A stretch of DNA of 39,571 nucleotides, from NCBI GenBank assembly GCA_965649215.1, contig CBFGJZ010000002.1, positions 63,555 to 103,125 on the forward strand. The letters run 5' to 3'. How positions within the stretch are numbered: position 1 is the first letter of the stretch; each line of letters begins with the position of its first letter. Under the pieces are notes generated by a model, which was given only the letters and a program-made list of their open reading frames with translations, was not told the origin of the DNA and ran no database searches. This stretch comes from a candidate division WOR-3 bacterium. GTDB lineage: Bacteria > Hydrothermota > Tepidihabitantia > Tepidihabitantales > CAIPLT01. Of the stretch, positions 22,864-38,896 are shown one piece after another. The position numbers were made by a program, and so were the translations under genes.

Positions 22864-22908
22864 AAGATCATTGACAATTAGTAGAGTTTAAGTTAATAAT
22901 AATATGAT

Positions 22909-22981
22909 GGTCCTATCGTCTAGTGGTTTAGGACATCACTCTTTCAAGGTGAAGACACGGGTTCGACTCCCGTTAGGACCA
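22909..22981 (+). tRNA. tRNA-Glu (TTC)
   Basis: Acceptor GGTCCTA/TAGGACC, anticodon arm TCACT-CTTTCAA-GGTGA, T-loop TTCGACT; TTGACA at 22871 upstream. Confidence 0.95.
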
Positions 22982-22987
22982 AATTTT

Positions 22988-23060
22988 GCGGGAGTAGCTC
23001 AGCTGGTAGAGCATAACCTTGCCAAGGTTAGGGTCGCGAGTTCAAATCTCGTCTCCCGCT
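22988..23060 (+). tRNA. tRNA-Gly (GCC)
   Basis: Acceptor GCGGGAG/CTCCCGC, anticodon arm TAACC-TTGCCAA-GGTTA. Confidence 0.95.
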
Positions 23061-23115
23061 TTAAATTTGGAAATAGTGTTTTAGAAAAAATCACTATTCC
23101 CCGTTGATTGAGATT

Positions 23116-23188
23116 GGCGGCATAGCCAAGTAGCTAAGGCGGCGGTCTGCAAAACCGCTATTCATGGGTGCAACTCCCATTGCCGCCT
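23116..23188 (+). tRNA. tRNA-Cys (GCA), atypical D- and T-loops
   Basis: Acceptor GGCGGCA/TGCCGCC with U73, anticodon arm GCGGT-CTGCAAA-ACCGC. T-loop is TGCAACT and the D-loop lacks GG. Confidence 0.9.
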
Positions 23189-23201
23189 GTTAATAATATA
23201 A

Positions 23202-23288
23202 GCCGGGATGGCGGAACTTGGTAGACGCAAGGGACTTAAAATCCCTCGTCCATTTATGGACATGCCGGTTCAATTCCGGCTCCCGGCA
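23202..23288 (+). tRNA. tRNA-Leu (TAA)
   Basis: Acceptor GCCGGGA/TCCCGGC, anticodon arm AGGGA-CTTAAAA-TCCCT, long variable arm GTCCA-TTTA-TGGAC. Confidence 0.95.
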
Positions 23289-23308
23289 GATAATTTTATT
23301 TACAGAAT

Positions 23309-23381
23309 GGGTCGTTAGCTCAGTTGGCAGAGCACCGGATTTTTAATCCGGTGGCCGCAGGTTCGAGTCCTGCACGACCCA
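23309..23381 (+). tRNA. tRNA-Lys (TTT)
   Basis: Acceptor GGGTCGT/ACGACCC, anticodon arm CCGGA-TTTTTAA-TCCGG. Confidence 0.95.
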
Positions 23382-23405
23382 TAATTTTATTTAGTGAGGA
23401 GAGCA

Positions 23406-24176: not shown

Positions 24177-24313
24177 TTAATTGACAAAGATGGTTAAAGT
24201 CTGCTTGGATATTTAATTTGAGTTTCATTATTTAGCTAAATAATGAATGCTTTTTTAGAGAAGGTAAATTGATATTGATAATAATCGCTCAGATTACTTA
24301 GTTTGAAATTAAA

Positions 24314-24662
24314 TGGAGGCGGCGGGAATCGAACCCGCGTCCGAAGCGTTCGAGATTTGAATTCTACATAGTTAGTTATTCTATAGTTCTCGTCGGTTCT
24401 TTAACCGAATAACAGGTTTGAACCAACCAGCCTTAACTTGAAGATCCAGTTTCAACTGTAAGGCGAAGTTGAAACCTTAATCACCCTCATCGACCCTTAA
24501 CCAATCCCGGGTGAGTGAATTGGTAAGAGTGGTTGCTTAATTAAGCAGCCATTGCATAGCTGTTATTGGCAGCTGTTTGTTCTTCGGTTTTTTTACGAGT
24601 TCCCGAAGCAACTCGCTATGCCTTCAAACCTCTCAGTCACTCCGTCAACACCATTCGCCCCC
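24314..24662 (-). ncRNA. ssrA: tmRNA; encoded tag reading ANNSYAMAA* at 24570-24541
   Basis: 5' GGGGGCG...GTTGAC, 3' GGACGCGGGTTCGATTCCCGCCGCCTCCA with a G:U acceptor pair, tag ending in AA-stop, 349 nt. Confidence 0.95.
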
Positions 24663-24760: not shown

Positions 24761-24788
24761 TTGACATTATAATAAAGATTTGTAAAAT
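24761..24788 (+). promoter_or_regulatory. Promoter of the exbB...porV operon
   Basis: TTGACA-16 nt-TAAAAT; SD AGGAGG before exbB. Confidence 0.65.
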
Positions 24789-24847
24789 TATATGATAATT
24801 ATGAAGCATATAAATATAAAAACTTTATTTTATAAGCAGGAGGAAAA

Positions 24848-25471
24848 ATGATACACGAATTTCAAGCTGGTGGCGGTATCATGTGGTTTTTATTAGCGTG
24901 TGCCGTGTTAGGTATCGCGCTACTGATCGAACGCATTGTTACAATCTTTGTGAAGATGCGTTTAAATACAAAAACTTTTGTCGCAAATCTTATTGAAACG
25001 ATTGATAAAGGCGGTGTTAAAGCAGGTATTGAAATGTGTGATAATACACCTTCGCCAGTTGCCAAAGTGCTTAAAGCAGCATTAGAAAAAGCAACGGGTG
25101 GACGAGCTTTAATGGAAGATGCGGTCTTGCGTTCGTCGGCAACCGAGCTGGCATTTCTTGACCGTGGTATGGGTCTTTTGGGTGGCATTATTACCGTCGC
25201 CCCATTTTTTGGTTTTTTAGGCACAGTGACCGGAATGATTCGAGCATTTGCCGCAGTTGCGGCAGTTGGTGAAGTTGAACCAACGGTTGTCGCAAGCGGT
25301 ATTTCTGAAGCCTTAATCACAACCAAATGGGGTTTGATGATTGCGGCACCACTTTCCATTATCTTTGTTTTAATTCAAGGTAAAATTAATTCGTATACCC
25401 GAGAAATGGAAGCATCGGCTTCAACTTTAATTGATTATTTAGCCGAGAAGTTTGTCTGTACTCCAAAATAA
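24848..25471 (+). CDS. exbB: MotA/TolQ/ExbB proton channel
   Basis: APFFGFLGTVTGMIRAF and GISEALITT..GL.IA.P motifs. Confidence 0.93.
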   Translation: MIHEFQAGGGIMWFLLACAVLGIALLIERIVTIFVKMRLNTKTFVANLIETIDKGGVKAGIEMCDNTPSPVAKVLKAALEKATGGRALMEDAVLRSSATELAFLDRGMGLLGGIITVAPFFGFLGTVTGMIRAFAAVAAVGEVEPTVVASGISEALITTKWGLMIAAPLSIIFVLIQGKINSYTREMEASASTLIDYLAEKFVCTPK

Positions 25472-25501
25472 TTAAACAGACAACAAGATGACGGAGGCGA
25501 A

Positions 25502-25909
25502 ATGAAATTTAGAGAGCGGCCTTCAACGAAGATATCGATTCCGACCGCATCATTAGGTGATATTGCGTTTTTAATTATCATCTTTTTTATGACGACTTCG
25601 ATTTTCAGTCGTGAGAAAGGTTTGAAAATTGTCTTACCAGAAAAAGGTCAAGAAGTAAAGATTAAGAGCGAAAACATTCTTACCATTTCAGTAAATCCGC
25701 AAGGAGAAGTTTTAATTAAAGATGCGATTGTCTCGATTCCTGATGTGAAAGGGATTGTTGAACAGGAATTAGCTCAAAACCCTGATTTAGTGATCGCTTT
25801 ACGAGTTAGTCGGATGGCACCGTATCGAACGATGATTAATGTTTTTGATGAACTGAAACTTGCCAAAGCAGAAAAAATAAGCTTAATACCAGTGAAAGAA
25901 GGAAGTTAA
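25502..25909 (+). CDS. exbD: ExbD/TolR biopolymer transport protein 1
   Basis: TM segment SLGDIAFLIIIFFM with the conserved Asp. Confidence 0.92.
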   Translation: MKFRERPSTKISIPTASLGDIAFLIIIFFMTTSIFSREKGLKIVLPEKGQEVKIKSENILTISVNPQGEVLIKDAIVSIPDVKGIVEQELAQNPDLVIALRVSRMAPYRTMINVFDELKLAKAEKISLIPVKEGS

Positions 25910-25911
25910 TT

Positions 25912-26325
25912 ATGAAACGCATTCAACGCATTGCCAAATCCCAGCCTGAAATCACAACCGCTTCAACATCAGATATTGCATTTTTATTAATTGTCTTTTT
26001 TATGCTCACGACAGTTTTTCGAACTGAAATGGGTTTAAAAATTACCTTGCCCACTGCTCAAGCTACAGAACGGATTATGAAAAGAAGAAATGTTGCCCAT
26101 GTCTGGGTTGATAAAGCCGGTCGGATTTCAATTAATGATAACTTCTTAGATTTGAACGGCGTGATTTCTGTTGCCCGTTCGAAATTTGAAGATAATCCTG
26201 ATATTATTATGGTGGTACGCGCAGATCAAGATGCAGAATATGGTAAGGTTTCTGATATTTTAGAAGCTTTAAAGGAAGCTGGTACTTTAAAGATTACTTT
26301 TGCAACTGAATTCGAAATGAAGTAA
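25912..26325 (+). CDS. exbD: ExbD/TolR biopolymer transport protein 2
   Basis: STSDIAFLLIVFFML TM segment; VRADQDAEYG motif. Confidence 0.92.
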   Translation: MKRIQRIAKSQPEITTASTSDIAFLLIVFFMLTTVFRTEMGLKITLPTAQATERIMKRRNVAHVWVDKAGRISINDNFLDLNGVISVARSKFEDNPDIIMVVRADQDAEYGKVSDILEALKEAGTLKITFATEFEMK

Positions 26326-26403
26326 GTGCTGATTATGAAAGATGTAGGTTTAAAGTTATGCAACTATAATGACCTATATAAGGTCTAATTAAGAGGGGAG
26401 AAT

Positions 26404-27021
26404 ATGAATAGATATGCTGATTGGGATAGTTATTATGCATATGCGTTGCGCTATAGTATTATCGTTGCACTCTTAATCGTCAGTTTAGCGTTTCTATTAT
26501 TACCCAAAGAGTTTATCTATCAGGCTTATCAATTAAAAAGAGAAACGACTACTATTGCTGAAGAACTACCACCCGAGTTAGAAAAAATTGCTGAACCACC
26601 ACCAGTTGAACGGCCCAAATTACCAGTCGCGGCAGAATCACCAGAAGAAGTCGAAGCTACAACCATTGAAAAGACCGAATTTCAAGAAATTGTAAAAAAA
26701 CCGGCGGAAACCGATATTCCAGTTGTACCGTATTGGGTAGTTGAAGTAAAACCACAGCCAATTAATATTCCGAAACCTGCTTATCCTGATTTGGCTCGAC
26801 AAGCAGGAATTGAAGGTAATGTGGTAGTTAAAGCATTAGTTGATGTTGATGGTAGTATAATTGAAGTGGAAATTTTAAAATCGTCAGGTAATAGTTCTTT
26901 AGATCAAGCAGCACTATCGGCAGCACGAGAAGCAAAATTTAGTCCGGCAAAACAACGAGATCAATTTGTTCGGGTCTGGGTTTCTATTCCATTTAAATTC
27001 AGTTTAACGAGCGGTAAATAA
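26404..27021 (+). CDS. tonB: Energy transducer TonB
   Basis: N-terminal TM, Pro/Glu-rich linker, C-domain PAYPDLARQAGIEGNV...SSG..LD.AA...FSPA. Confidence 0.93.
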   Translation: MNRYADWDSYYAYALRYSIIVALLIVSLAFLLLPKEFIYQAYQLKRETTTIAEELPPELEKIAEPPPVERPKLPVAAESPEEVEATTIEKTEFQEIVKKPAETDIPVVPYWVVEVKPQPINIPKPAYPDLARQAGIEGNVVVKALVDVDGSIIEVEILKSSGNSSLDQAALSAAREAKFSPAKQRDQFVRVWVSIPFKFSLTSGK

Positions 27022-27034
27022 GGAGTATAAAATA

Positions 27035-27190
27035 ATGATGCGAATCAATGTATTAACTTTAAAGAGAGGGGTGATTCGCAATCATTATAAAATATTAATT
27101 TCAAGAAAGGAGGGGTTAAGACAAAACAAACAAACTCTTAATCTCATCCCAATTAACACGATTGGGAAATTAAATTTATGGAGGTCGTAA
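27035..27190 (+). CDS. Candidate 51-aa basic small ORF
   Basis: AAGGAG SD upstream of the ATG; its TAA stop overlaps the next ATG (TAATG). No recognisable family. Confidence 0.35.
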   Translation: MMRINVLTLKRGVIRNHYKILISRKEGLRQNKQTLNLIPINTIGKLNLWRS

Positions 27191-28911
27191 TGAAAAAACT
27201 ATGTGTATTATTGCTCTTAGTAGCAATAGCAATAGCAAGCAACAATTATCGACGAATCCAAACCGTCCTACCGTCATTAGATGACAAAATTGATAACACA
27301 AGAGCGGTTCTAAATATTTCACGCAGTGACGACAATCCCCAAGATCGACCAATTATTGGCCGTCAAGAAGTAGTTGGTTATACTGATTATGACTGGTGTT
27401 TTAATGGGCCGAATTATAAGATGTGTATTGTCGATCCAGTTGCTAACGGTATTCATGTTGCTTGGATGTATCGTCAGGGAAGTAATCCCCGCAATATGCG
27501 TTATAATTTCTATGATTTTTCAACCAATACTTGGAACTGGCCCGGCACAGGTGTAAATGTTCATACAGTTTCAACTGGCTTTGGCGGCATGGATAATGAT
27601 CCAATAACTGGTCATGCCGTGATTACTGGTCATGGTACAATCAGTGGAGTTTTAGTACCAATTGTTGCCAGAGATATTTCACCAGGAGCAGGATTATTTG
27701 AGTATTCTAATCCGACTTTTTCATCGCTTTGGCCACCAGTAGGCGTAACGAATAACCAGATGATTCATATTGCTCCGACTTCTAATGACCCAGGCGGGCT
27801 ACGCGATACTGTTTATTATATGCGTATGACGGCATGGAACACCTGGGACGCACCATATTTGATTCATGATAATGCGACAATACCCAATTTCCCAACTCAA
27901 AATATTGCTGCATCTAAAACATCTAATAAAGTTGTGGTTTTGTGGGAATGTTCAGAAGATCCTTATCCAGAAAGAGCGTTTTATCGCCTTTCGACCGATG
28001 GTGGTGCAAACTGGGGCGCAATTACGCAAATTCCATTTCCACCTTCATACGGTGGTATAGTGCCTGGTTATCATATCTCATCATTATATGCAATTTTTGA
28101 TAACAACGATAATCTACGGATTGTTGCTTCAGTTTCTGATACTGGTTATACGCTTCCTGCTCAAATTTGGATGTACAGTCCGCATTTAACGAATCCTTGG
28201 ACTTTAATTCATCATTATGATGCTGATACTTTAACGGCACCAGTTGGTTACAATGCTATTTTTGCGACTCGTCCAACTGTTGCTCAAGCACCAAACGGCA
28301 ACTTTGTTGTTGCTTGGGAACAATTTGATTCGCTTAATTATGAACCGACAACCAATTTAGCTCGAGCCGATATTCATGTAGCTGTTTTAACAAATAACGG
28401 CCAGACCGTTGCTCGTAAAGGTAGAATTACCGATCCGAATACTACTTCAAAACGATTCCCGTCAATCGGTGGTGTTAAGAACGATACCATTATTCTAATG
28501 TATATGATAGATTCAGTTGCAGGTTCAGTAGTTCAAAGTCAAGGTCCCCTTACCAATAATCCAATTGTCGTGCATCGTCTGCACATGAACTCATTACCTG
28601 CAGCGGTTGACGAATACAACCCAACTCCAAGTTATGAACTAGCATTAAATAAAGCCCAGCCCAATCCATTTAGCAATCACACGGTAATTCGTTATTCACT
28701 ACCCACAAATACTAATATTGATTTGACCATCTATGATATATTAGGTAGACCAGTTAAAACCCTTGCCACTGGTTATGTCAGTGCTGGTAGTTATACTGCA
28801 ATATGGAATGGACGAACCGATAACAATGAACTTGCCAAACCAGGTATCTATTTCTACACCTTAAAGACAGCTAATCGACAGATTTCGCAAAAAATCGTTA
28901 AGACCAATTAA
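27190..28911 (+). CDS. Secreted Asp-box/CTD protein; paralog 2 of 3
   Basis: Signal peptide MKKLCVLLLLVAIAIA (start at ATG 27190, GGAGG SD); LSTDGGANW; PNPF...IYDILGR...WNG...PGIYFYTL CTD. Confidence 0.8.
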   Translation: MKKLCVLLLLVAIAIASNNYRRIQTVLPSLDDKIDNTRAVLNISRSDDNPQDRPIIGRQEVVGYTDYDWCFNGPNYKMCIVDPVANGIHVAWMYRQGSNPRNMRYNFYDFSTNTWNWPGTGVNVHTVSTGFGGMDNDPITGHAVITGHGTISGVLVPIVARDISPGAGLFEYSNPTFSSLWPPVGVTNNQMIHIAPTSNDPGGLRDTVYYMRMTAWNTWDAPYLIHDNATIPNFPTQNIAASKTSNKVVVLWECSEDPYPERAFYRLSTDGGANWGAITQIPFPPSYGGIVPGYHISSLYAIFDNNDNLRIVASVSDTGYTLPAQIWMYSPHLTNPWTLIHHYDADTLTAPVGYNAIFATRPTVAQAPNGNFVVAWEQFDSLNYEPTTNLARADIHVAVLTNNGQTVARKGRITDPNTTSKRFPSIGGVKNDTIILMYMIDSVAGSVVQSQGPLTNNPIVVHRLHMNSLPAAVDEYNPTPSYELALNKAQPNPFSNHTVIRYSLPTNTNIDLTIYDILGRPVKTLATGYVSAGSYTAIWNGRTDNNELAKPGIYFYTLKTANRQISQKIVKTN

Positions 28912-28922
28912 ATATTCTTATA

Positions 28923-28963
28923 TTATCCTCCAGCCCTTTTGCACGAAAAGGGCTGGAGGATAA
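28923..28963. terminator. Perfect 18-bp hairpin inside the operon (attenuator or mRNA stabiliser)
   Basis: TTATCCTCCAGCCCTTTT-GCACG-AAAAGGGCTGGAGGATAA. No U-tract on the + strand. Confidence 0.55.
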
Positions 28964-29050
28964 AAGCTTGCTTAACTAAATAGTGAGCAAGAAAAGAAGG
29001 AAGGTTTTAGGAGAAGGAAAATATTGCTCACTATATAAGAAGGAGGTGTA

Positions 29051-30808
29051 ATGAAGTATACAGTCGTTATATTATTATGTACTGTTTGTTTAATCCAAGG
29101 ATTCAATAGAGATTTAATTGAACAAAAACGCATATTAATCGATGAAAACTGCCAACTTGAAGCGGCTACTATAAACAATCCGAAGGTTAAAACAAATGAT
29201 CAAACTTCAATCAATGATTTTGTATTAGGACGAATTGAAGTAGTGGGAGGTACTTGTTATGATTGGGTAAATGGACCTTGTGCAACTTGGTGTATAAATG
29301 ATCCCACGAATGGAATTCATGTAACTTGGCTTTGGTCAAATACTTCAGGGCTTACGGACCGCAATATGCGGTATAATTTCTATGACTGGTCGACTCATTC
29401 TTGGAACTGGATTGACAATAACAATTATATGAATTCAGGAATTAATGTCTTTTCTCACACAATGACCAGCGTTGCTGGAGGTGCTGATTTAGACCGGACA
29501 ACTGGTAATTTTGTAATTGCCGGTAATTATGGAACCAGTGGTTCAATTTTACCAAAACTGGCGCGTGATTTAGTACCGGGAGGTGGTTTATTTGAATATA
29601 CTGAAGGTCCATTAGGTTGGCGTTGGCCTTTTCTTGCGTTAAGTCAAAATCAAGCAATTCATGTTGCTTGTGTTGATGTCACTACAACTGATTCATTATA
29701 TTATACTCGATGTCAACCATGGGGAACTTGGACAACTCCAATTAATATCTGTCCGCCTCAACCAGCACCACTATTCCCAAATCAGAACATTGCTGCTTCC
29801 AAAGTTTCTAACAAGGTTTGTATAGTTTGGGAATATTCTGAAGATATTGGTCAAGAACGAGCGTTTTATCGAATTTCTAATGATGGCGGCGTTAATTGGC
29901 AACCGCCACAACAATTACCATTTCCCCCATCAGTAGGTATTGCGCCATCATTTGGAGTGTCATCACTATTTGCTATGTATGATGCTTCTGATAATTTGCA
30001 TATTGTTGCATCAGTGTCAGATACAGGTGTGACGGTACCTGCAGAAATTTGGCATTGGTGTCCGGCTAATAATCCGCAGTGGAGTTTAATACATCGTTTT
30101 GATCCTGACACATTAACCGCACCGGTTGGTTATAACGCTATTTTTGCCACCCGTCCTTCTATTATTCAAGAGCCAACTACTGGCTATTTTTATGTTGCTT
30201 GGGAACAGTTTGATTCTCTTAATTATGAACCAGCTACAAATCGTGCTCGTGCCGATATTCACATTGCTCAATCCAATAATAACGGTCAGACTTGGAATGC
30301 TAAAGCACGTATTACAGATCCGAATACAACATCTAAACGTTTTTCCGTAGTTGGCGGTGTTCAGGTGACACCGAGCCCGACCGATAAAGATACTTTATTA
30401 GTATTCTATATGATTGATTCGATCGCAGGAGCATTCTTACAGAACGAACATCGTTTCTGTGTTAATCCGATGGTCGTGCATCGAGTGCCAGTACCATTAA
30501 GTCCAGCTATTGAAGAAAATAATAATGTTGTCAAGCCCAATCTTGAATTACAAATTATGCCAAATCCGATTACAAATAATGCAGTGATTAAATACAGTTT
30601 ACCAAAGTCAGGTAAAGTTAACCTGTTAATTTCTGATATTACGGGCAGAACCATCAAAATACTTCGTCAAACTTTTGAACAGGCAGGAAGTTATACAATT
30701 CAGTTTTCTTTAAAATCGAATAGTAATCGCAAATTATCAACCGGAGTTTACTTCATAACTTTAACAACTGGCGACGGCTCGATTACGAAAAAGATATTAA
30801 TAAAATAA
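29051..30808 (+). CDS. Secreted Asp-box/CTD protein; paralog 3 of 3
   Basis: Signal peptide; ISNDGGVNW and SNNNGQTW; PNP...DITGR...STGVYFITL...KKILIK CTD; SD AGGAGG. Confidence 0.8.
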   Translation: MKYTVVILLCTVCLIQGFNRDLIEQKRILIDENCQLEAATINNPKVKTNDQTSINDFVLGRIEVVGGTCYDWVNGPCATWCINDPTNGIHVTWLWSNTSGLTDRNMRYNFYDWSTHSWNWIDNNNYMNSGINVFSHTMTSVAGGADLDRTTGNFVIAGNYGTSGSILPKLARDLVPGGGLFEYTEGPLGWRWPFLALSQNQAIHVACVDVTTTDSLYYTRCQPWGTWTTPINICPPQPAPLFPNQNIAASKVSNKVCIVWEYSEDIGQERAFYRISNDGGVNWQPPQQLPFPPSVGIAPSFGVSSLFAMYDASDNLHIVASVSDTGVTVPAEIWHWCPANNPQWSLIHRFDPDTLTAPVGYNAIFATRPSIIQEPTTGYFYVAWEQFDSLNYEPATNRARADIHIAQSNNNGQTWNAKARITDPNTTSKRFSVVGGVQVTPSPTDKDTLLVFYMIDSIAGAFLQNEHRFCVNPMVVHRVPVPLSPAIEENNNVVKPNLELQIMPNPITNNAVIKYSLPKSGKVNLLISDITGRTIKILRQTFEQAGSYTIQFSLKSNSNRKLSTGVYFITLTTGDGSITKKILIK

Positions 30809-30831
30809 TATAAAAATATAAGGAAGAGAAT

Positions 30832-31884
30832 ATGAGTAAAAAAACTATATTTATCTGTACGCTGGGCATAATTATTGCAATGCTGTTATCTTCATGTGGA
30901 ACAGAAGCGCCGGCATTATGGCCTTGGTGGACAAAAGAAGATACCTTAGCAGTTAATAACGAACTTGCAAACTGGCGCGACACTATCAATGGGTATCTAC
31001 CGATAAAGAATCAGAGCTATGTTTATGATATTAATATACCTCTGCTTAGCACAGACACTAACCCTCGTAGTAATTATGTTGATTCAATAATTAAAGTTGC
31101 CCATTTGCTTGGTTTTAATTATACAGTTGTTGAAAGAGATCCGATTTTAGAATATACCTTTGGTCGTAAAAACGATACGATTATTATGAAAGATACTTTT
31201 TGTTATGTTAAATATCGGGATTCATCTAATGCGATCGTTGCAATTCAAGTTGATAGTATTTGGACAATTCGTTTTTATCCGGATACGACTATTGATACTA
31301 CAACAACTCCTGCCGAAACTATTATCACCTATCGTATGTTAAATTACACGAAAACTTATTATAACCGATTAGAAGAAGAGAAACATTTTGATTACCAAAC
31401 AACTCGCTATTTAGAACTTAAAAAAGACAGTGCGGTTTGTAATTACCGATTTAAACATCTTACTGGATTTGGTAGTTATTTGCCCAATAATACAATTGCC
31501 CCAACTATCAGTTATATTGTTTTAACTCGTATCACTGGCCAACGCGATACCTTCCGTTATAGCCCACGAGCAGACAATAAAGGTATCTTGAATCTACGAG
31601 ACAAAGACTCACTCTATTTAGTTGATCTTAATCAACCGTTAGAAGTCCAAGTAACATTAACAACCAGTGCTTCGCCCAATTATGTGTTTATCAGCTATGG
31701 TAATCCCACCGTTAGTAATAAAATCTTTGTTCCAGTGGTTAATAATGTTGCATCGACAACAATTACTCTACCGCAGGAGGGTCTTAATCATTTATATATT
31801 GAAGTAATACCGACCGATGCTTTATTCTATCAGCACATCGCATGGAAGACAACTATTTGGGCTTTGCCGGTGCGAGTAAGATAA
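30832..31884 (+). CDS. Lipoprotein of unknown function
   Basis: Lipobox-like LLSS-C22; beta-rich mature part; directly upstream of the TBDR. Confidence 0.7.
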   Translation: MSKKTIFICTLGIIIAMLLSSCGTEAPALWPWWTKEDTLAVNNELANWRDTINGYLPIKNQSYVYDINIPLLSTDTNPRSNYVDSIIKVAHLLGFNYTVVERDPILEYTFGRKNDTIIMKDTFCYVKYRDSSNAIVAIQVDSIWTIRFYPDTTIDTTTTPAETIITYRMLNYTKTYYNRLEEEKHFDYQTTRYLELKKDSAVCNYRFKHLTGFGSYLPNNTIAPTISYIVLTRITGQRDTFRYSPRADNKGILNLRDKDSLYLVDLNQPLEVQVTLTTSASPNYVFISYGNPTVSNKIFVPVVNNVASTTITLPQEGLNHLYIEVIPTDALFYQHIAWKTTIWALPVRVR

Positions 31885-31896
31885 AAGGAGGGAAAT

Positions 31897-34722
31897 ATGA
31901 AAAATAGGAATATTTCAATCATGGTGAAAAATTTAGTTATTATATCCTTGATACTTATTCCCTATTTATTATTTGCTGGTGAAACTGGTCGAATTATTGG
32001 GCGGGTCATTGACTCAGAAACCAAAGAGCCCTTAGCAGGAGTTAATATCATTGTGGAGGGTACTCCACTTGGTGCCGCGACTGATAATAACGGGAATTAT
32101 TTAATTGCTAATGTGCCAGCTGGAAAACAGGTTTTAGTTGCTTCTTATGTCGGTTATGAACCAGTGCGAATGCTTGATGTGTTGGTTATTTCTGATCAAA
32201 CTGTTACTATAAATTTTAATCTTCGTTCCACGGTAATACCAGTAGGTGCTGTTGAAGTTTCAGCAGAAAGACCTTTAATTGTCAGAACGCAAGCGTCAAC
32301 TCAACGCGTTATAACAACTGACCAATTTGATAAATTACCAGTTGCTTCGTTAGGAGCAATTGTTAACTTATCTGCAGGTGTTGTGACGAGTCCAGCTTTT
32401 GGTACCCATATTCGTGGTGGCAGACCCGATGAAGTCGTATATTTTATAGACGGAATTGCTACTTCTGATCCAATGTATGGTTATTCAGCAGCACGAGTCA
32501 ATCCTCAAGCCACTGCAGAAGTTTTGATTATATCAGGTGGATTTGATGCAGAGTATGGTGAAGCGATGTCAGGAATAATTCAAGTTATTACAAAAGAAGG
32601 AAGAGACTATACTTCAGCACGAATAAAATACACAAGTGATGCTTTCTTACCAAAAACAGTTAACTTTGGTTATAACCGAATTGAAGCATCATTAGGTGGA
32701 CCAACACCACTTGATAAACTAAAATACTTTTTGTCAGGTGAAGTTTTTATTGCTGAGGATTATGCACCTCGTAAACACAAATTACCTCATCAAAATCGTT
32801 CTGATTATAAAATGACTGGTAAAATAACATACACACCTCCCTTTGCGTCAGGATTAAAAATAACTGGAGACGGATTTATGGCAAGAGAACAATGGGAACA
32901 ATATCCATCCGAGCGAGAAGGTTCAGGTGCATTAAATCATATTGGTTTTAAGTATCATCTTGATCATTTCTTGTCGCGTCAAGAGCGAGTAAGAAAAGCA
33001 GGCCTTTCAGCAAATCATATGTTGACTAAAAACACATTCTATACGGTTCGTTATGGTTATTTCTGGGATGAACGAGTAATTGCAGTCCGTGATTTAGAAA
33101 AAGAAAAAGAACTCGGTTATACTTTTGGATGGCGATTTTGGCAGGACTATCAGTTCAAAGCATTGGACTCAGTAAGAGCAAGACCAGATATAATCCGTGG
33201 TGTTTTACCAGGATACGAGCAGCAACGAAACAATGTTGTCAACAATCCATTTGGTGTAAACAATCTATTTTATGGAGTTGGTGATTATCGTTATTTTATG
33301 TTACATGGTTCAACTGTACGTACTATCAAGGGAGATTTAACTCATAATATCGGTAAGATTCATGAAATCAAAGGCGGCATTGAAATGCGTAATAATTATC
33401 TGTTTCGAAGGTATAATTCATTACCATGGGATCCTAATCCCTTTTTTGATACTTATGACTTTTATCCTGTCAATCTCGCAACTTATATTCAAGATCGAAT
33501 GGATTTCGAAGATTTAGTTATTCGTGCAGGGTTACGATTTGATTATTTAGATCCAAAAGCATATAAGCGGGCCAATCCAACCAACATAGAAGATACATCG
33601 AAAGTTGCGGCAATGCAGAAATATAAAATTTCACCAAGACTCGGTGTTTCATTCCCGATTGGTGAAAAAGCCAAATTCCGATTTTCATACGGTCATTTCT
33701 TCCAAACCCCACCTTTTAGATATCTGTATGATAATATCAGTGATGCGGCTTATCGTCGTGGCAATCAGATTATTGCCAATCCTGATTTAAGAGCGCAACA
33801 GACGGTTGCCTACGAAATCGGGTCCGAAGTTTTACTTACTCCGATTTTGGCTGCTGATTTTACTGCCTATTACAAAGATATTTATGATTTAATTGGTATT
33901 CGATTTATTCCTGCGGTTCCAACTGGTTATTATCCAATTCAGAATGAAGATTATGGAAATGTCCGTGGTTTTGAGATTAGTGTGATTAAACAATTAGCTG
34001 ATTATTGGTCCGCTCGATTAAGCTACGGACTTTCTTTTGCTAAAGGCACTTCTTCTTATGGTTACGAATATTACTATGAGCGTTATGCTTACGGTGTTGA
34101 TCCGGTGTCCGGTCAAGAAATGCAGCCACCAAAAGCAGATTATGCTTTGGATTTTGATGAAAGACATTCAGCTAAACTTGATCTTGGTGTTGATTTCCCT
34201 TCCGATTTTGTTTTTATCCCGGCTCGCAATTTAAAAGCAACTCTATTATTTAGTTTTGGTTCTGGCTTACCATACACGCCTCGTGAACCAGAATTACGGC
34301 AAGGTTTAAATAGCGGTCGACGAACTGGTGAGAAGAATTCTTTACGTATGCCTGCACGTTTCATTACTGACGCTAAAATATCCAAAGGTTTTAGTATTAG
34401 TGAAAAAATAAAATTTAACTTAGTTTGCGATATCACAAATTTATTTAATGCGAAAATTGTGGAATGGGTTTACGGATATACGGGTAGTCCTTCGGATGAT
34501 GGCAATGCAATTACTTATGCAACACGCGCAATAAATCCTGCTGATGATATTAATTTAACATATGCGAGTTATCATCCAGCTCGTGACCGTAATTCAAATG
34601 GTGTTGTTGATGATTATGAAGAATATGTAGCTTATTTAATGGCATGGCGTGATTTTGTTGATAATCCGATGAATTATGGCGCTCCGCGGCAAATTAGATT
34701 TGGCATTGATTTTGAATTTTAA
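31897..34722 (+). CDS. TonB-dependent receptor with N-terminal carboxypeptidase-regulatory-like domain
   Basis: GRIIGRVID..T.EPL.GVNI; plug HIRGGR..E..Y.IDG and GGFDAEYG.A.SG.I...TKEG; barrel motifs AGLRFDY, ISPRLG, YGHFFQ, NPDL; C-terminal beta-signal RQIRFGIDFEF. Confidence 0.93.
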   Translation: MKNRNISIMVKNLVIISLILIPYLLFAGETGRIIGRVIDSETKEPLAGVNIIVEGTPLGAATDNNGNYLIANVPAGKQVLVASYVGYEPVRMLDVLVISDQTVTINFNLRSTVIPVGAVEVSAERPLIVRTQASTQRVITTDQFDKLPVASLGAIVNLSAGVVTSPAFGTHIRGGRPDEVVYFIDGIATSDPMYGYSAARVNPQATAEVLIISGGFDAEYGEAMSGIIQVITKEGRDYTSARIKYTSDAFLPKTVNFGYNRIEASLGGPTPLDKLKYFLSGEVFIAEDYAPRKHKLPHQNRSDYKMTGKITYTPPFASGLKITGDGFMAREQWEQYPSEREGSGALNHIGFKYHLDHFLSRQERVRKAGLSANHMLTKNTFYTVRYGYFWDERVIAVRDLEKEKELGYTFGWRFWQDYQFKALDSVRARPDIIRGVLPGYEQQRNNVVNNPFGVNNLFYGVGDYRYFMLHGSTVRTIKGDLTHNIGKIHEIKGGIEMRNNYLFRRYNSLPWDPNPFFDTYDFYPVNLATYIQDRMDFEDLVIRAGLRFDYLDPKAYKRANPTNIEDTSKVAAMQKYKISPRLGVSFPIGEKAKFRFSYGHFFQTPPFRYLYDNISDAAYRRGNQIIANPDLRAQQTVAYEIGSEVLLTPILAADFTAYYKDIYDLIGIRFIPAVPTGYYPIQNEDYGNVRGFEISVIKQLADYWSARLSYGLSFAKGTSSYGYEYYYERYAYGVDPVSGQEMQPPKADYALDFDERHSAKLDLGVDFPSDFVFIPARNLKATLLFSFGSGLPYTPREPELRQGLNSGRRTGEKNSLRMPARFITDAKISKGFSISEKIKFNLVCDITNLFNAKIVEWVYGYTGSPSDDGNAITYATRAINPADDINLTYASYHPARDRNSNGVVDDYEEYVAYLMAWRDFVDNPMNYGAPRQIRFGIDFEF

Positions 34723-34734
34723 AAGGAGAGAATT

Positions 34735-37700
34735 ATGAGAAAAATTATTAATTTAAAACTTTTTCTAATTGTAACTATATCTTTGGTGATTAGCTCTGTG
34801 AGTTTTGCAAGGACTGCAGAAAATCCCTGGCGACCAGGTCGGCTATTAGATTTTAAATGGTATGGTAAGAATCAATGGCGAATGTCAATTACAAATTACG
34901 GTACTTTTGGTTATGGTATTGGACGCGCCGGTGGTGAGTGGCCTCGAGGTTCTGGAAATTATTATATTTATGGTGCTGGTATTTGGGTTGGGTGTATGCC
35001 ATCACGAACTGAAACATTAGTTACTTGTGGTTATAATCCATCGTCAGGTGCTTCTGAGTTTACACCAGGTGCCTGGGAAAATGCACCGGGTGGTTATTCT
35101 GCTCGGTCTTTTGAACGAGTTTATATATATCCTGAAGATTGGCCACCAAATCCTTTGGATTTTCCAGAAAGTATGCGAGATTCTTTTGAAACGCCACTAC
35201 GGATTCCAGTATCAGGTGCCGATACACTCGTTGGTTATTTATATCCAATCCCGCGAAAGACAACATCTTCATATGATGCCTGGACTGTGTTAAATGATCG
35301 TGATCCCGATCGACACACAACACCCAAAATACCTATTGGTGTTGAAATTTATCAGACAGTCTTTGCATGGAACTTACCATGGAATCGAGACATTGTTTTC
35401 TTTATTTATAATGTTAAAAATATGACAAGTGATACGCTAAAAAGGTTATATTTAGGAATGGCATGCGATGCGGATATTGGTGGTGCTAATGATGATATGT
35501 GTGGATTACTCTTACGTAAATATGTCAAAAATCGTCAAGGCACCGATTCGGTTTTTGCAGATAATGTTGGTTATGTATGGGATAATGATTTTGATGAAGG
35601 TTGGGCAACTCCTCCTGGATATGTTGGTTTTGATTTTCTCCAAAGTCCCTATGCTTATAACGATGGTATTGACAATAATGGCAATGGTATAATTGATGAA
35701 GGACCTGATGGTCTGGACAATAATGGTAATGGTTTGATTGACGAACCAGCTGAATTGGAACAACTTGGAATGGTAAGCTTTAAAATGTTTACTTTACAAG
35801 CAGGCGACCCGGTAACGAATTATACACAATATTTAGCAATGTCAGGATATAATTATTGGGAAACACCACCAGTTTATTCACCTTTTGATTCAATTGATCC
35901 CGCACCAAATGATAAGCGATTTTTACAGTCGACAGGTCCTTTCAATTTAGCTCCTGGTGAACTAGCAACAATTACAATTGCAGTCATGGCAGCACCGTCT
36001 AATCCCGTTGGCGGGGTCGGTGATTTATATCAACTTGGGCTTACTTCAGCTGCCGCACAAGCCGCATATGATAATTTCTGGATTATGCCCGAAGCTCCCC
36101 CAAGTCCTAATTTGACTTTGATTCCCGGCGAAGGCCGAATTACATTAATTTGGGATAATGCCTCAGAACAAGCACGAGATGGTTTCTATACTTTAGCTGC
36201 AACTCTCCGCAATCCATTTTATCGAGAATTTGATTTTCAGGGTTATAAAGTATATAAATCTTTAACCGGTAAAGTCGGTGAATGGACATTGCTCGATCAG
36301 TTTGACAAAATTGATGGTATAGTTTATGAAGATACTACAGTTGCGGAATCGCTTCGTACCAAAGCGACTGATAAGGGTTTGAGTTATGCTTATATCGATT
36401 CTTCTGATATTAGACTCGGTTTTCCTTATTATTATGCAGTTACTGCGTTTGATGTTAATGTATTAGGTGGTGATCCGAATCCTGCCGATACAACACGTTT
36501 ATCTTTAGAATCAGGACTCGCACCAAAAGTGGCTACAGCTCGAACTGCACCATCTAATTATACTCATCCTTGGTTTAATATTAACAAGCTGATTGGTGGA
36601 GAAAAATTGTATCTTAATCTTAATCCGTTGGCATTAGCAAATTATGCTATTAAGAGCGATATCTACACTTTGAAGTTTTTGCCGCCGAAACCAAGCGGTC
36701 CCGCAGCAAGCCGTATCCCCCTATATGAATTTTTAATTACAAATGCCAATAACGATACAGTCGTGCCGATTCAGAGTTTTTCAATTAACATTCGTAATTC
36801 GTCAAGCCCACTTACTTTACATCCTACCGTTTTTGATGATATCATAACGAATATCAAGGAAGTAACGTATGATACAGTTATTAATGGTCAAATTGTTACT
36901 TTAACTCGTATTGATACGACTTGGGCATATATGCCAATAATTGATATTGGTATGACATTACGAATGGACTCAATACCACTCCAACCATTTGACCGAGTTA
37001 TTGTGAAGAGTGGCTCCTATCCGCAGGATTCATTACAGATTTCAGTGGTTTCTAATAATGCTGCTTTATGGGCATATCGGGGTTCAAATTATCAAATTGT
37101 CTGGAAATTAAAACGGCCAAATGATCCTCAGAGTCCATTGACGGCTGAAGTTTATGATTTGACTATCGGAGAATATGTACCATATCGTAGGATGCGTAGT
37201 TTAACTTTAGATCAAGACTCAGCTAATGGGTGGAGTTTCTTTTTGGGAGCGGATACTTTACGATTGAACTCAACAATTAATATGACCATTTGTGGTGGCC
37301 AGTTTAATTTCAATCAGAATCGGCCAATCCGAATACTACCCGCTCCTGAAGATACGTGGATTGTTTATTCAAAACCACTTTCATGTGCCCCAGCTTACGC
37401 TCAGTTCCAGATTGTTGCTCATCCGATGCAGTCGTTACCAGAAAGTATCGCTTCGAAACTTAAAGTGAAAGTAGTACCGAATCCCTATTTAGTTCGAAAT
37501 GCTTGGGAAAGACATCCTGATTATCGTAAAATCAAGTTCATTAACTTACCTGATAAGTGCACAATAAGAATTTATAATTTTGCTGGTGATTTGCTAAAAA
37601 CGATTAAACACGATGCGACCAAAGTTGCTGGGAGCGGTAATTTGCCTTTACAATCAGGTGGAGATGAAGATTGGGATTTACTAACTGAATCAGGTCAAAA

Positions 37701-37779
37701 GCCGGCACCGGGTATCTACTTGTTTCACATTGAATCCGATATAGGTAATCAAGTTGGAAAATTTGTGATTATCTACTAA
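34735..37779 (+). CDS. 1014-aa secreted protein with Ca-binding-type repeats, FN3-like domain and T9SS-like CTD
   Basis: Signal peptide; ITNYG...EWPRGSG..YIYGAGIWVG N-domain; 2x DG.DNNGNG.IDE; PP.P.L......ITL.W...DFQGYKVY...YYYAVTAFD; VVPNPY...FINLP..CTIRIY...G.L...WDL......APGIYLFHI...GKFVII. Confidence 0.8.
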   Translation: MRKIINLKLFLIVTISLVISSVSFARTAENPWRPGRLLDFKWYGKNQWRMSITNYGTFGYGIGRAGGEWPRGSGNYYIYGAGIWVGCMPSRTETLVTCGYNPSSGASEFTPGAWENAPGGYSARSFERVYIYPEDWPPNPLDFPESMRDSFETPLRIPVSGADTLVGYLYPIPRKTTSSYDAWTVLNDRDPDRHTTPKIPIGVEIYQTVFAWNLPWNRDIVFFIYNVKNMTSDTLKRLYLGMACDADIGGANDDMCGLLLRKYVKNRQGTDSVFADNVGYVWDNDFDEGWATPPGYVGFDFLQSPYAYNDGIDNNGNGIIDEGPDGLDNNGNGLIDEPAELEQLGMVSFKMFTLQAGDPVTNYTQYLAMSGYNYWETPPVYSPFDSIDPAPNDKRFLQSTGPFNLAPGELATITIAVMAAPSNPVGGVGDLYQLGLTSAAAQAAYDNFWIMPEAPPSPNLTLIPGEGRITLIWDNASEQARDGFYTLAATLRNPFYREFDFQGYKVYKSLTGKVGEWTLLDQFDKIDGIVYEDTTVAESLRTKATDKGLSYAYIDSSDIRLGFPYYYAVTAFDVNVLGGDPNPADTTRLSLESGLAPKVATARTAPSNYTHPWFNINKLIGGEKLYLNLNPLALANYAIKSDIYTLKFLPPKPSGPAASRIPLYEFLITNANNDTVVPIQSFSINIRNSSSPLTLHPTVFDDIITNIKEVTYDTVINGQIVTLTRIDTTWAYMPIIDIGMTLRMDSIPLQPFDRVIVKSGSYPQDSLQISVVSNNAALWAYRGSNYQIVWKLKRPNDPQSPLTAEVYDLTIGEYVPYRRMRSLTLDQDSANGWSFFLGADTLRLNSTINMTICGGQFNFNQNRPIRILPAPEDTWIVYSKPLSCAPAYAQFQIVAHPMQSLPESIASKLKVKVVPNPYLVRNAWERHPDYRKIKFINLPDKCTIRIYNFAGDLLKTIKHDATKVAGSGNLPLQSGGDEDWDLLTESGQKPAPGIYLFHIESDIGNQVGKFVIIY
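35662..35748 (+). repeat. Two ~45-bp coding repeats (DGIDNNGNGIIDE / DGLDNNGNGLIDE)
   Basis: Visible in both DNA and protein; DxDxNG-type calcium-binding-like loop. Confidence 0.75.
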
Positions 37780-37791
37780 AAGGAGAGAGAT

Positions 37792-38841
37792 ATGAAAAGA
37801 GAATTAAGACGATATAAGTATTTGATAACAGTTTTAATATGTTTATTGATCTGGTTTAACTCAACAGAAGCAATCTTTACAAAACTTGGTAAAGCAGGTA
37901 TGCCATTTCTGAAAATTGGTATTGGCAGCAGAGCTAATGGACTGGGAGATGCATTTGTGGCAATTGCTGATGATGTTTCGGCAACTTATTGGAATCCAGC
38001 AGGACTTGCTATTTTAAAGAACCGCGAAGTGATGTTTAATCATATTGACTGGATTTTACAAACACGGCTTGAATATTTAGCCGGCGCATTTCCAACTAAT
38101 TTAGGAACTTTTGGGATTGCTTTGACTAATGTCTCTTACGGCGATTTTGAACAGACAACCATTGATAATTATCAAGGTACAGGAGAATATTTCAGTGCTG
38201 CTGATTGGGCTTTAGTTGCTTCATTTGCTCGTATGTTTACTGATAAGTTCTCATTTGGTGCTTCAATTAAAACAATGCAACAACGAATATGGGATATGAC
38301 GGCGAATGCCTTTGCTTTTGATTTTGGCACGTATTATAATACAGGTTTTAAGAACATCCGATTGGCAATGACAATTTCTAACTTTGGTCCTGATGCTTCA
38401 TTTAGCGGAAAACAGTTATATTTTAACTATTATCCTGATTATGGTTGGCCTTGGACAGTTACTCCGATCCAAAGTGAATTGCTCACAGAAAAGTTTATTT
38501 TGCCAATAATCTTTCGTTTTGGGGTTGCTTATGATATTTTCCAAATTGAAGATAAATCGCGATTAACAATGGCAATCGATTTAGCTCATTATAACGATGT
38601 AAATGAAAAAGTTAATATTGGTTTAGAATATGAATATCTTAATTTTGCATTACGAGGCGGTTATATATTAAATACTGATAGTGAATATCGAAATGCAGTT
38701 GGTGTCAGTGACGGTTTATCTTTTGGTGCAGGTGCCTGGATTAATGCAACATCGCAATTAAAACTAAAAGTTGATTATGCTTATCGTAATCTTTCTCGAT
38801 TGGGTATTTCGCATCGGATTGGAGTAAATATCGGATTTTAG
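37792..38841 (+). CDS. PorV/PorQ family outer-membrane beta-barrel
   Basis: FLKIGIGSRANGLGDAFVAIADDVSATYWNPAGL signature, AFDFG.YY, LP..FRFG, LRGGY, C-terminal SHRIGVNIGF. Confidence 0.88.
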   Translation: MKRELRRYKYLITVLICLLIWFNSTEAIFTKLGKAGMPFLKIGIGSRANGLGDAFVAIADDVSATYWNPAGLAILKNREVMFNHIDWILQTRLEYLAGAFPTNLGTFGIALTNVSYGDFEQTTIDNYQGTGEYFSAADWALVASFARMFTDKFSFGASIKTMQQRIWDMTANAFAFDFGTYYNTGFKNIRLAMTISNFGPDASFSGKQLYFNYYPDYGWPWTVTPIQSELLTEKFILPIIFRFGVAYDIFQIEDKSRLTMAIDLAHYNDVNEKVNIGLEYEYLNFALRGGYILNTDSEYRNAVGVSDGLSFGAGAWINATSQLKLKVDYAYRNLSRLGISHRIGVNIGF

Positions 38842-38856
38842 TTAATAACTAATTAC

Positions 38857-38896
38857 AAGGGGTGAGTATTTATTGTGCTCGCCCCTTTTTATTTTT
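38857..38896 (+). terminator. Intrinsic terminator closing the exbB...porV operon
   Basis: AAGGGGTGAGTA-loop-TGCTCGCCCC followed by TTTTTATTTTT. Confidence 0.85.

Follow-up and report, generated by a model that had tools for sequence, protein, structure and literature searches.

A conserved triad of TonB-dependent receptor, large surface protein and PorV-like barrel in a candidate division WOR-3 bacterium, proposed to act as a SusD-free uptake complex

In this study, we analysed a 39,571-nt stretch of DNA (hereafter the window) from contig CBFGJZ010000002.1 of a candidate division WOR-3 bacterium, a small hot-spring bacterium whose genome (G000) comprises 1.64 Mb in 39 contigs and is 95.1 % complete. 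The window carries an operon of ten co-oriented genes, all on the plus strand, which encode a Ton motor (ExbB, two ExbD copies and TonB), two secreted proteins ending in a C-terminal domain (CTD) of the T9SS (type IX secretion system), a lipoprotein, a TonB-dependent receptor (TBDR), a 1014-aa secreted protein and a barrel of the PorV/PorQ family. The content, order and places of these ten genes had been proposed in an initial annotation of the window and hold with Pfam and NCBIfam identities, as does its statement that no SusD, sprA or porKLMN gene is found in the window. We propose, with a probability of about 0.6, that this is a nutrient-uptake operon encoding a SusD-free complex, whose surface partner would be exported by the T9SS and retained by the barrel. 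This proposal builds on the gene content, on the conservation of the TBDR-partner-barrel triad, on the family membership of the barrel, on the homology of the partner tail to T9SS CTDs and on the finding of no other Ton system in the genome.

The triad is formed by the last three genes of the operon. The first (31897..34722) encodes a 941-aa TBDR with a CarboxypepD_reg extension (PF13715, 69.3 bits), a TonB-box-like motif, a plug (PF07715, 29.3 bits for a cut-off of 23.9) and a 22-strand-type barrel (PF00593, 99.6 bits for a cut-off of 27). It is followed by the gene of the 1014-aa protein (34735..37779), hereafter the partner, which has a Sec signal without lipobox and gave no family match when searched at full length, and by the gene of a 349-aa, 14-strand-type barrel of the PorV/PorQ family (37792..38841; NF033709, 202.6 bits for a cut-off of 90).

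The distribution of the triad was surveyed across the Fibrobacterota-Chlorobiota-Bacteroidota (FCB) group, where a profile of the partner matched 583 of 587 candidate stretches of species genomes, and the best 80 loci were inspected. Their records are labelled as WOR-3/Stahlbacteria, Cloacimonadota, KSB1, Ignavibacteria, Calditrichota, Marinimicrobia, Zixibacteria, Eisenbacteria, Rhodothermales, Balneolia and Bacteroidota. A TBDR gene was located directly upstream of the large-protein gene in 72 of the 74 testable loci (six of the 80 being at a contig end), and a PorV-like barrel gene adjoined the latter in 68 of 69 testable loci, i.e. 63 times downstream and five times between the TBDR and large-protein genes (11 of the 80 loci were untestable, and L087 was the sole locus without barrel). 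Within the source phylum, for which 20 loci from 19 genomes were surveyed, the triad order was kept in all of them. The source genome itself harbours a second lipoprotein-TBDR-partner-barrel set on contig C33, with no Ton genes beside it, whose last three proteins are 41 %, 36 % and 41 % identical to those of the window. Because order and adjacency are kept across the 80 FCB loci and the 20 phylum loci, and the companion genes accompany only part of them, the triad appears from gene order to be an ancient unit of the FCB group as a whole; linkage to the Ton genes and the presence of the lipoprotein are traits of part of the phylum, and the two CTD genes, which bear Asp-box motifs, are local additions. 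The statement in the initial annotation that such triads are common in non-Bacteroidota FCB genomes is well supported by this survey, which recovered the adjacency of TBDR, CTD protein and PorV as a strongly conserved module across many FCB phyla. The large-protein family comprises 14,774, 7,572 and 2,377 cluster representatives at E-values of at most 1e-3, 1e-10 and 1e-30, respectively, without annotation, and a literature search not extending to full texts retrieved no description of a TBDR/large-protein/PorV-like triad or of a T9SS in WOR-3.

Among the other records encountered, triads were also seen under the labels archaeon and Paceibacterota, and a 'Chloroflexia' record held large-protein fragments only, without TBDR or barrel. 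Some of the record labels among L036/G001, L044, L093 and L087 look unreliable.

The family assignment of the barrel was corroborated by a profile of 45 of its homologs, which matched the solved Flavobacterium johnsoniae PorV (6h3i, E 6.6e-31). It belongs to none of the named equivalogs, its scores being 68.6 bits for PorV (cut-off 250), 91.4 for PorQ (cut-off 220) and 78.2 for PorV2 (cut-off 325). When barrel residues 27-349 were modelled together with the C-terminal 128 residues of the partner, the complex scored 0.88 versus 0.00 for the best of three controls, a mark reached by 58 of 80 solved complexes and by 2 of 110 mismatched pairs. At least 94 % of the contacts agreed between runs, the predicted local distance difference test (pLDDT) of the partner was at least 69 and the interface fell on conserved motifs. 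An interface between the barrel and the tail of the 1014-aa protein is therefore predicted, as the initial annotation had anticipated when it put forward structural modelling of PorV with each CTD; the model bears a likeness to the PorV-cargo interaction, and the barrel probably holds the partner tail.

We further examined the structure of the partner. Its AlphaFold2 model (pLDDT 77.9) displays a beta-supersandwich (residues ~34-450), FN3 and immunoglobulin (Ig)-like domains and a C-terminal beta-sandwich, and no catalytic domain was recognised in the protein. The VIA structure search matched the N-terminal domain to N-domains without catalytic function, namely those of dextran dextrinase (Z 18.6 over 254 aligned residues, root-mean-square deviation 3.3), GH15 glucodextranase (Z 17.6), GH116 enzymes (~Z 16.9) and GH94 phosphorylases (~Z 16). 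The whole-chain Foldseek search gave mostly FN3-string matches of low TM-score, with PorZ (5m11) and PorU (6za2) among the matches listed. The C-terminal ~110 residues (~905-1014) are the most conserved region of the family, with a GKFAVIK-like final strand in 60 of 60 complete pairs, and this tail has its best family matches, although sub-threshold, in the C-terminal ends of PorZ and PorU. A profile of CTDs, iterated over the proteins of the genome itself, matched both triad partners (E 1.5e-15 for that of the window and 1.7e-15 for that of C33). Judged by these sequence comparisons, the partner tail appears to be a divergent, highly conserved CTD homologous to T9SS CTDs.

Regarding the TBDR, an x-V-x-V-x-A motif is located between the N-terminal extension and the plug in 21 of 21 aligned sequences, and is TonB-box-like by comparison with the TonB-box consensus. 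The SusC/RagA model TIGR04056 gave 61.5 bits for a cut-off of 368.25, residues 34-248 alone being matched. By sequence, a single solved relative was found, RagA (6sli; E 6.7e-7, residues 33-249), which is the TBDR in the peptide importer RagAB. No SusD-family match was obtained among the operon proteins with Pfam and NCBIfam.

A whole-genome search for T9SS genes, as suggested in the initial annotation, had a divided outcome, with sprA, a PorU-like sortase and eight PorV/PorQ-family paralogs on one side and no match for the motor genes (PorLM, i.e. GldL/GldM) or for GldK and GldN on the other. SprA (TIGR04189, 439 bits for a cut-off of 200) is encoded by a 1874-aa open reading frame (ORF) on the same contig, outside the window and ~70 kb upstream of exbB. 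The PorU-like sortase scored 409.8 bits for a cut-off of 420, with a full-length match and both C25 peptidase and propeptide domains, and several of the PorV/PorQ paralogs are located near CTD-tagged C25 peptidases. In addition, a CTD-like domain is found at the end of 91 of the 1,354 ORFs that are 120 aa or longer. GldL/PorL and GldM/PorM gave no match in the source genome, although divergent forms could escape the models, and GldK/PorK and GldN/PorN gave none with TIGR03525 and TIGR03523, two models used without positive control. At the phylum level, SprA was present in 59 of 61 genomes and Plug domains in 61 of 61 sampled genomes, while GldL and GldM (GldM_1st) each exceeded the cut-off in 0 of 41. 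Positive controls for the GldL and GldM searches worked, with 128 bits for the genome G076 and matches in 7 of 7 genomes belonging to its family, and the same TIGRFAM searches gave no match in five further genomes either. G003, the genome of L058, likewise yielded neither GldL nor GldM.

Several side observations were made during this inventory. Many of the CTD-like ORFs encode C25, M6, M14, S8 or M1 peptidases, or Kelch, SBBP or FG-GAP propeller proteins. PorV/PorQ paralogs on contigs C14, C38 and C35 (L111, L112 and L113, respectively) stand beside or near CTD-tagged C25 peptidases, suggesting that this genome generally tends to pair a cargo with a private barrel. On contig C18 (L114:1011-4637, minus strand), a 264-aa PorV/PorQ-like barrel is co-oriented with a CTD-like 436-aa protein and a 5'-nucleotidase/metallophosphatase, a run that may form a surface module for scavenging nucleotides. 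In family f9, three genomes, namely G061 (C22:25397-25759), G073 (C9) and G048 (C4), gave sub-cut-off GldL matches of 19.6-23.8 bits in 720-745-aa frames, which are either chance matches or a very divergent motor-like protein. No GldM was found in 31 genomes of the class around the 'Chitinophagaceae' genome (L036/G001).

In the uptake complex that we propose, ExbB-ExbD-ExbD-TonB would energise the 941-aa TBDR, and the 1014-aa protein would be the extracellular partner of this receptor, without the lipid anchor that SusD has. The partner would be exported through the SprA-type T9SS of the cell and would then be kept at the surface, its divergent CTD staying uncleaved and bound to the private PorV/PorQ-family barrel, as in the PorZ-PorQ and PorU-PorV pairs. 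We infer this mode of retention because the CTDs of PorU and PorZ are described as retained and bound to PorV and PorQ, and cognate PorV-like barrels are suggested to protect the CTD from cleavage (PMC10202324, a 2023 review). The beta-supersandwich and the FN3/Ig domains of the partner would capture the substrate and pass it to the TBDR, and the all-beta lipoprotein encoded upstream may be a lineage-specific extra subunit.

As for the substrate, peptides or protein fragments released by the many surface peptidases would be likelier here than free glycans. Peptidase domains were found in 20 of the 59 annotated CTD ORFs (C25 in 12 of them, including the PorU-like sortase, M6 and M14 in two each, and S8, M1, C11 and M28 in one each), and a glycoside-hydrolase catalytic domain in 0 of 59. 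Moreover, the C33 triad is directly followed by a C11 peptidase and faced by a C25 peptidase, and the window encodes, at 12928-16641 on the plus strand, a 1237-aa C25 peptidase with propeptide and CTD amid amino-acid catabolism genes (FTCD, arginine decarboxylase, aminotransferase and HutI). Owing to the CTD peptidases, the peptidase neighbours on C33, the amino-acid catabolism genes of the window and the relatedness of the TBDR to RagA, we consider peptides or glycopeptides somewhat the likelier substrate in this genome; the triad family may bind different polymers in different lineages.

A number of points weigh against this proposal. Two loci among the 74 testable ones, L037 and L087, have no TBDR. 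The status of the partner as a CTD protein, asserted by the initial annotation, is upheld by the profile from the genome itself and not by Pfam or NCBIfam, which made no CTD call on the full protein, the tail alone scoring 19.7 bits with TIGR04183 for a cut-off of 23; the iterated profile could moreover have drifted and counts as supporting evidence only. The complex model was computed with our own alignments, which makes its calibration only rough, and it may pass by likeness to solved PorV complexes in the PDB. With respect to the substrate, the survey covered 59 of the 91 CTD-like ORFs, and the partner N-terminal domain is similar to the N-domains found in glycoside hydrolases and in phosphorylases (Z 16 to 18.6), which speaks against peptides as the general substrate.

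Among the alternatives, the one that survives best, though we hold it to be unlikely, is that of a surface adhesin or coat module, composed of the large protein with its barrel and functionally unrelated to transport, the TBDR linkage reflecting only the co-regulation of outer-membrane genes. The partner is indeed built of adhesin-like FN3/Ig domains, and a FadL-type barrel holds a surface protein, with no uptake role, in the beta-barrel assembly machinery (BAM) of Bacteroidota, as reported in PMC12578637. Nevertheless, the constant gene order and the TBDR adjacent in nearly all testable loci of many phyla, together with the gaps of ~12 bp here, are hard to explain without a joint function.

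Other alternatives concern the Ton motor, whose genes open the operon: exbB, the proton-channel stator (24848..25471; PF01618, 87.2 bits), a first exbD (25502..25909; PF02472, 84.7 bits), a second exbD whose product is 35 % identical to the first (25912..26325; PF02472, 92.4 bits) and tonB (26404..27021; PF03544, 82 bits; TIGR01352, 80.7 bits). All three components of this ExbB-ExbD-TonB system exceed the Pfam cut-offs. No second tonB copy was found by tblastn of the genome with the TonB of the window as query, and the sole other MotA/ExbB-family gene found belongs to a Tol-Pal cluster on contig C26 (TolQ, TolR, a TonB_2-domain protein, a TPR protein and an OmpA/Pal-type protein). Plug-domain proteins number only three in the genome, two of them in triads. 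Since the other ExbB belongs to Tol-Pal, no second tonB was found and two of the three Plug proteins are in triads, we therefore regard this motor as the general one of the cell, set before its main client, and not as a dedicated machine. The exbB-exbD-exbD-tonB genes are directly upstream of the triad in 10 of the 20 phylum loci (families f2, f4 and f9), a layout shared by the present genome (family f1), and stand beside the triad in 3 of the 80 FCB-wide loci, all three close relatives.

The initial annotation had offered, as a second model, that this motor energises the export or display of CTD proteins, perhaps besides import. The failure of GldL and GldM to exceed the cut-off throughout the phylum with working controls, the near-universal SprA, the large set of CTD-like ORFs and the Ton genes directly upstream of half of the phylum triads (three families) are in keeping with it, and ExbBD and PorLM/GldLM are homologous motor types according to PMC10202324. 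Against it, TBDRs occur in all 61 genomes, so that the Ton motor has an ordinary job and a second one is unneeded, and a TonB-box-like motif is conserved in the TBDR. In the FCB-wide survey the triad mostly stands without Ton genes beside it, and it occurs also in G076, together with GldL and GldM; sprA and exbB are 15 to 100 kb apart where both positions are listed, and never neighbours there; and the two models used could miss divergent motor proteins. With SprA and a PorU-like sortase also present, the second model is not supported and we consider it quite improbable, and we attach as little likelihood to a single Ton motor that doubles as power for TBDR import and for type IX-style export or hand-over, which would make TonB an ancestral or alternative T9SS energiser.

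A TBDR-like barrel serves as export conduit in the Oar/PopC case of Myxococcus. We give least credence to a self-contained display system of this kind, in which the TBDR-like barrel exports the large protein and the PorV-like barrel receives it, as the CarboxypepD_reg domain, weak PF25183 matches (29.3 bits for the TBDR of the window and 38.9 bits for that of C33) and the strict adjacency that would fit it are countered by a partner tail homologous to T9SS CTDs, by SprA and a PorU-like sortase offering an ordinary export route, and by the finding of no exporter-specific feature.

The SusD-free uptake complex that we favour can be set against better-known systems. To our knowledge, SusCD/RagAB-type systems are the only ones in which TonB-dependent uptake involving a surface partner is well understood. 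As in SusC/SusD and RagA/RagB, a TBDR with a CarboxypepD_reg-type extension is found here beside a large surface partner in a protease-rich organism, and RagA is its only solved relative; unlike in these systems, the TIGR04056 cut-off is missed, there is no SusD/RagB, the partner is ~1000 aa long, all-beta, non-lipidated and endowed with a T9SS-type tail, and a PorV-like barrel is an obligatory third gene. The P. gingivalis T9SS attachment complex, with its PorQ-PorZ and PorV-PorU pairs, likewise associates a PorV/PorQ-family barrel with a retained-CTD protein (PMC10202324), retention being predicted in the present case, and the partner tail matches the C-termini of PorZ and PorU best, with 5m11 and 6za2 also met by Foldseek. 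Here, however, the barrel fails the equivalog cut-offs, the partner has no PorZ or PorU body and the pair is tied to a TBDR and not to the secretion machinery. Linked, specific CTD-barrel pairs also decide the destination of type-B CTD cargo in Flavobacterium johnsoniae (PMC12618676), but the barrels there are PorP/SprF shuttles and not PorV/PorQ, the CTD is of another type and no TBDR is involved. Finally, BamG-BamH of the Bacteroidota BAM resembles the pair in that a FadL-type barrel grips a surface protein by its extracellular loops, beside another large barrel (PMC12578637); this likeness is one of description, and BamG-BamH belongs to BAM machinery, with no CTD or TBDR involved. The operon system would accordingly work like SusCD/RagAB without being a member of that family, and would anchor its partner like PorQ-PorZ with different proteins.

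If this proposal is true, a T9SS-delivered partner held on a private PorV-like barrel joins two outer-membrane systems that are usually studied apart, and the triad may be a main route of polymer capture in WOR-3, Ignavibacteria, Calditrichota, Marinimicrobia, Cloacimonadota, KSB1, Zixibacteria, Rhodothermales and others. Records titled Melioribacter (L058) and Ignavibacterium album (L062) carry the triad, which makes it testable in cultured organisms. The co-occurrence of SprA and a large CTD secretome without detected GldLM further raises the question of how type IX export is energised outside Bacteroidia.

The gene directly upstream of the TBDR (30832..31884) encodes a 350-aa lipoprotein of no known family, whose lipobox Cys22 is invariant in 15 homologs. 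Its AlphaFold2 model (pLDDT 81.7) is all-beta, with very long strands and a C-terminal Ig-like domain. No match at Z >= 8 was obtained among 48,161 chains with VIA and only generic Ig-like ones with Foldseek, which does not imply a novel fold, and neither structure search returned a SusD-like fold. An Atlas search with the lipoprotein returned clusters only, mostly labelled WOR-3. A homolog precedes the TBDR in 10 of the 20 phylum loci and at C33. Because it is encoded 12 bp upstream of the TBDR and is conserved, the lipoprotein is likely an extra subunit of the TBDR complex in part of the phylum, a lineage-specific companion that the initial annotation had overlooked.

Two paralogous genes separate tonB from the lipoprotein gene. 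The first (27178..28911) encodes a 577-aa secreted protein whose N-terminal ~480 aa are unannotated, with a CTD (TIGR04183, 47.9 bits for a cut-off of 23) and one Asp-box motif. The second, ctdB (29051..30808), encodes a 585-aa protein 47 % identical to the former by BLASTP, with a CTD (44.8 bits for the same cut-off) and two Asp-box motifs. No solved homolog was found for these proteins, and Atlas returned unannotated clusters together with an 'exo-alpha-sialidase family' lead at 0.84. Their designation as Asp-box proteins was half right: the CTDs are canonical type-A, and the Asp-box part is thin, with so few motifs and Pfam BNR matches below the cut-off. One such gene is found between tonB and the lipoprotein gene in 6 of 6 sampled family-f2 loci and in L025. 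The first model of the initial annotation, a SusD-free uptake machine in which a dedicated PorV tethers the 1014-aa protein and the Asp-box proteins beside the TBDR, is accordingly retained for its conserved triad and for the barrel predicted to bind the CTD of the large protein, and is abandoned for the Asp-box proteins, which are not part of the module: as lids tethered by PorV they are disfavoured by their ordinary type-A CTDs and by their presence in the operon only here, in L025 and in the f2 loci.

The transcriptional organisation of the operon was also considered. It is bounded upstream by a tmRNA gene (ssrA; 24311..24662, minus strand; Rfam RF00023, 167.6 bits) that lies outside the operon and specifies an ordinary tag peptide according to ARAGORN; this divergent gene makes the upstream edge firm. 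Its own minus-strand promoter-like site is at 24698-24671 (12/12 matches). The 185-bp divergent gap before exbB contains the promoter-like site of the operon (24761..24788, plus strand; TTGACA, 16 nt, TAAAAT; 11/12), which is a match to the consensus only. Across the window, promoter-like sites are not enriched (70 found vs 59.3 +/- 8.1 expected) and terminator-like sites are (21 vs 10.6 +/- 3.6). An intrinsic terminator with a 13-bp stem, six GC pairs and a T-run closes the operon (38857..38887, plus strand). No riboswitch or other regulatory RNA was found upstream of exbB, the region carrying the tmRNA gene.

Both end signals named in the initial annotation exist, but its description of the genes as tightly spaced applies to the last five only, the gaps from ctdB through the lipoprotein, TBDR and 1014-aa protein genes to the PorV-like gene being 23, 12, 12 and 12 bp. 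The 156-bp gap after tonB (27022..27177, plus strand) is strongly structured (fold from 27028; minimum free energy -36 kcal/mol, z -6.0) and includes a weak terminator-like site at 27147-27167; it is a possible transcript boundary or regulatory leader. The 139-bp gap between the two CTD genes (28912-29050) folds at -50.8 kcal/mol (z -7.0 versus shuffles) and holds an 18-bp perfect hairpin without U-tract (28923..28963, plus strand). The core of this hairpin occurs once in the window, against 0 expected by chance, and the hairpin may act as a site of processing, as a partial terminator or in stabilising the mRNA. A search for sequencing runs containing the locus listed no RNA run, and the DNA runs contained at most 0.23 of the sampled words. 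Because these two internal gaps are strongly structured, a single transcript for all ten genes is unproven. Like the tmRNA gene, five clustered tRNA genes (Glu, Gly, Cys, Leu and Lys; 22908-23382, plus strand) lie just upstream of the operon.

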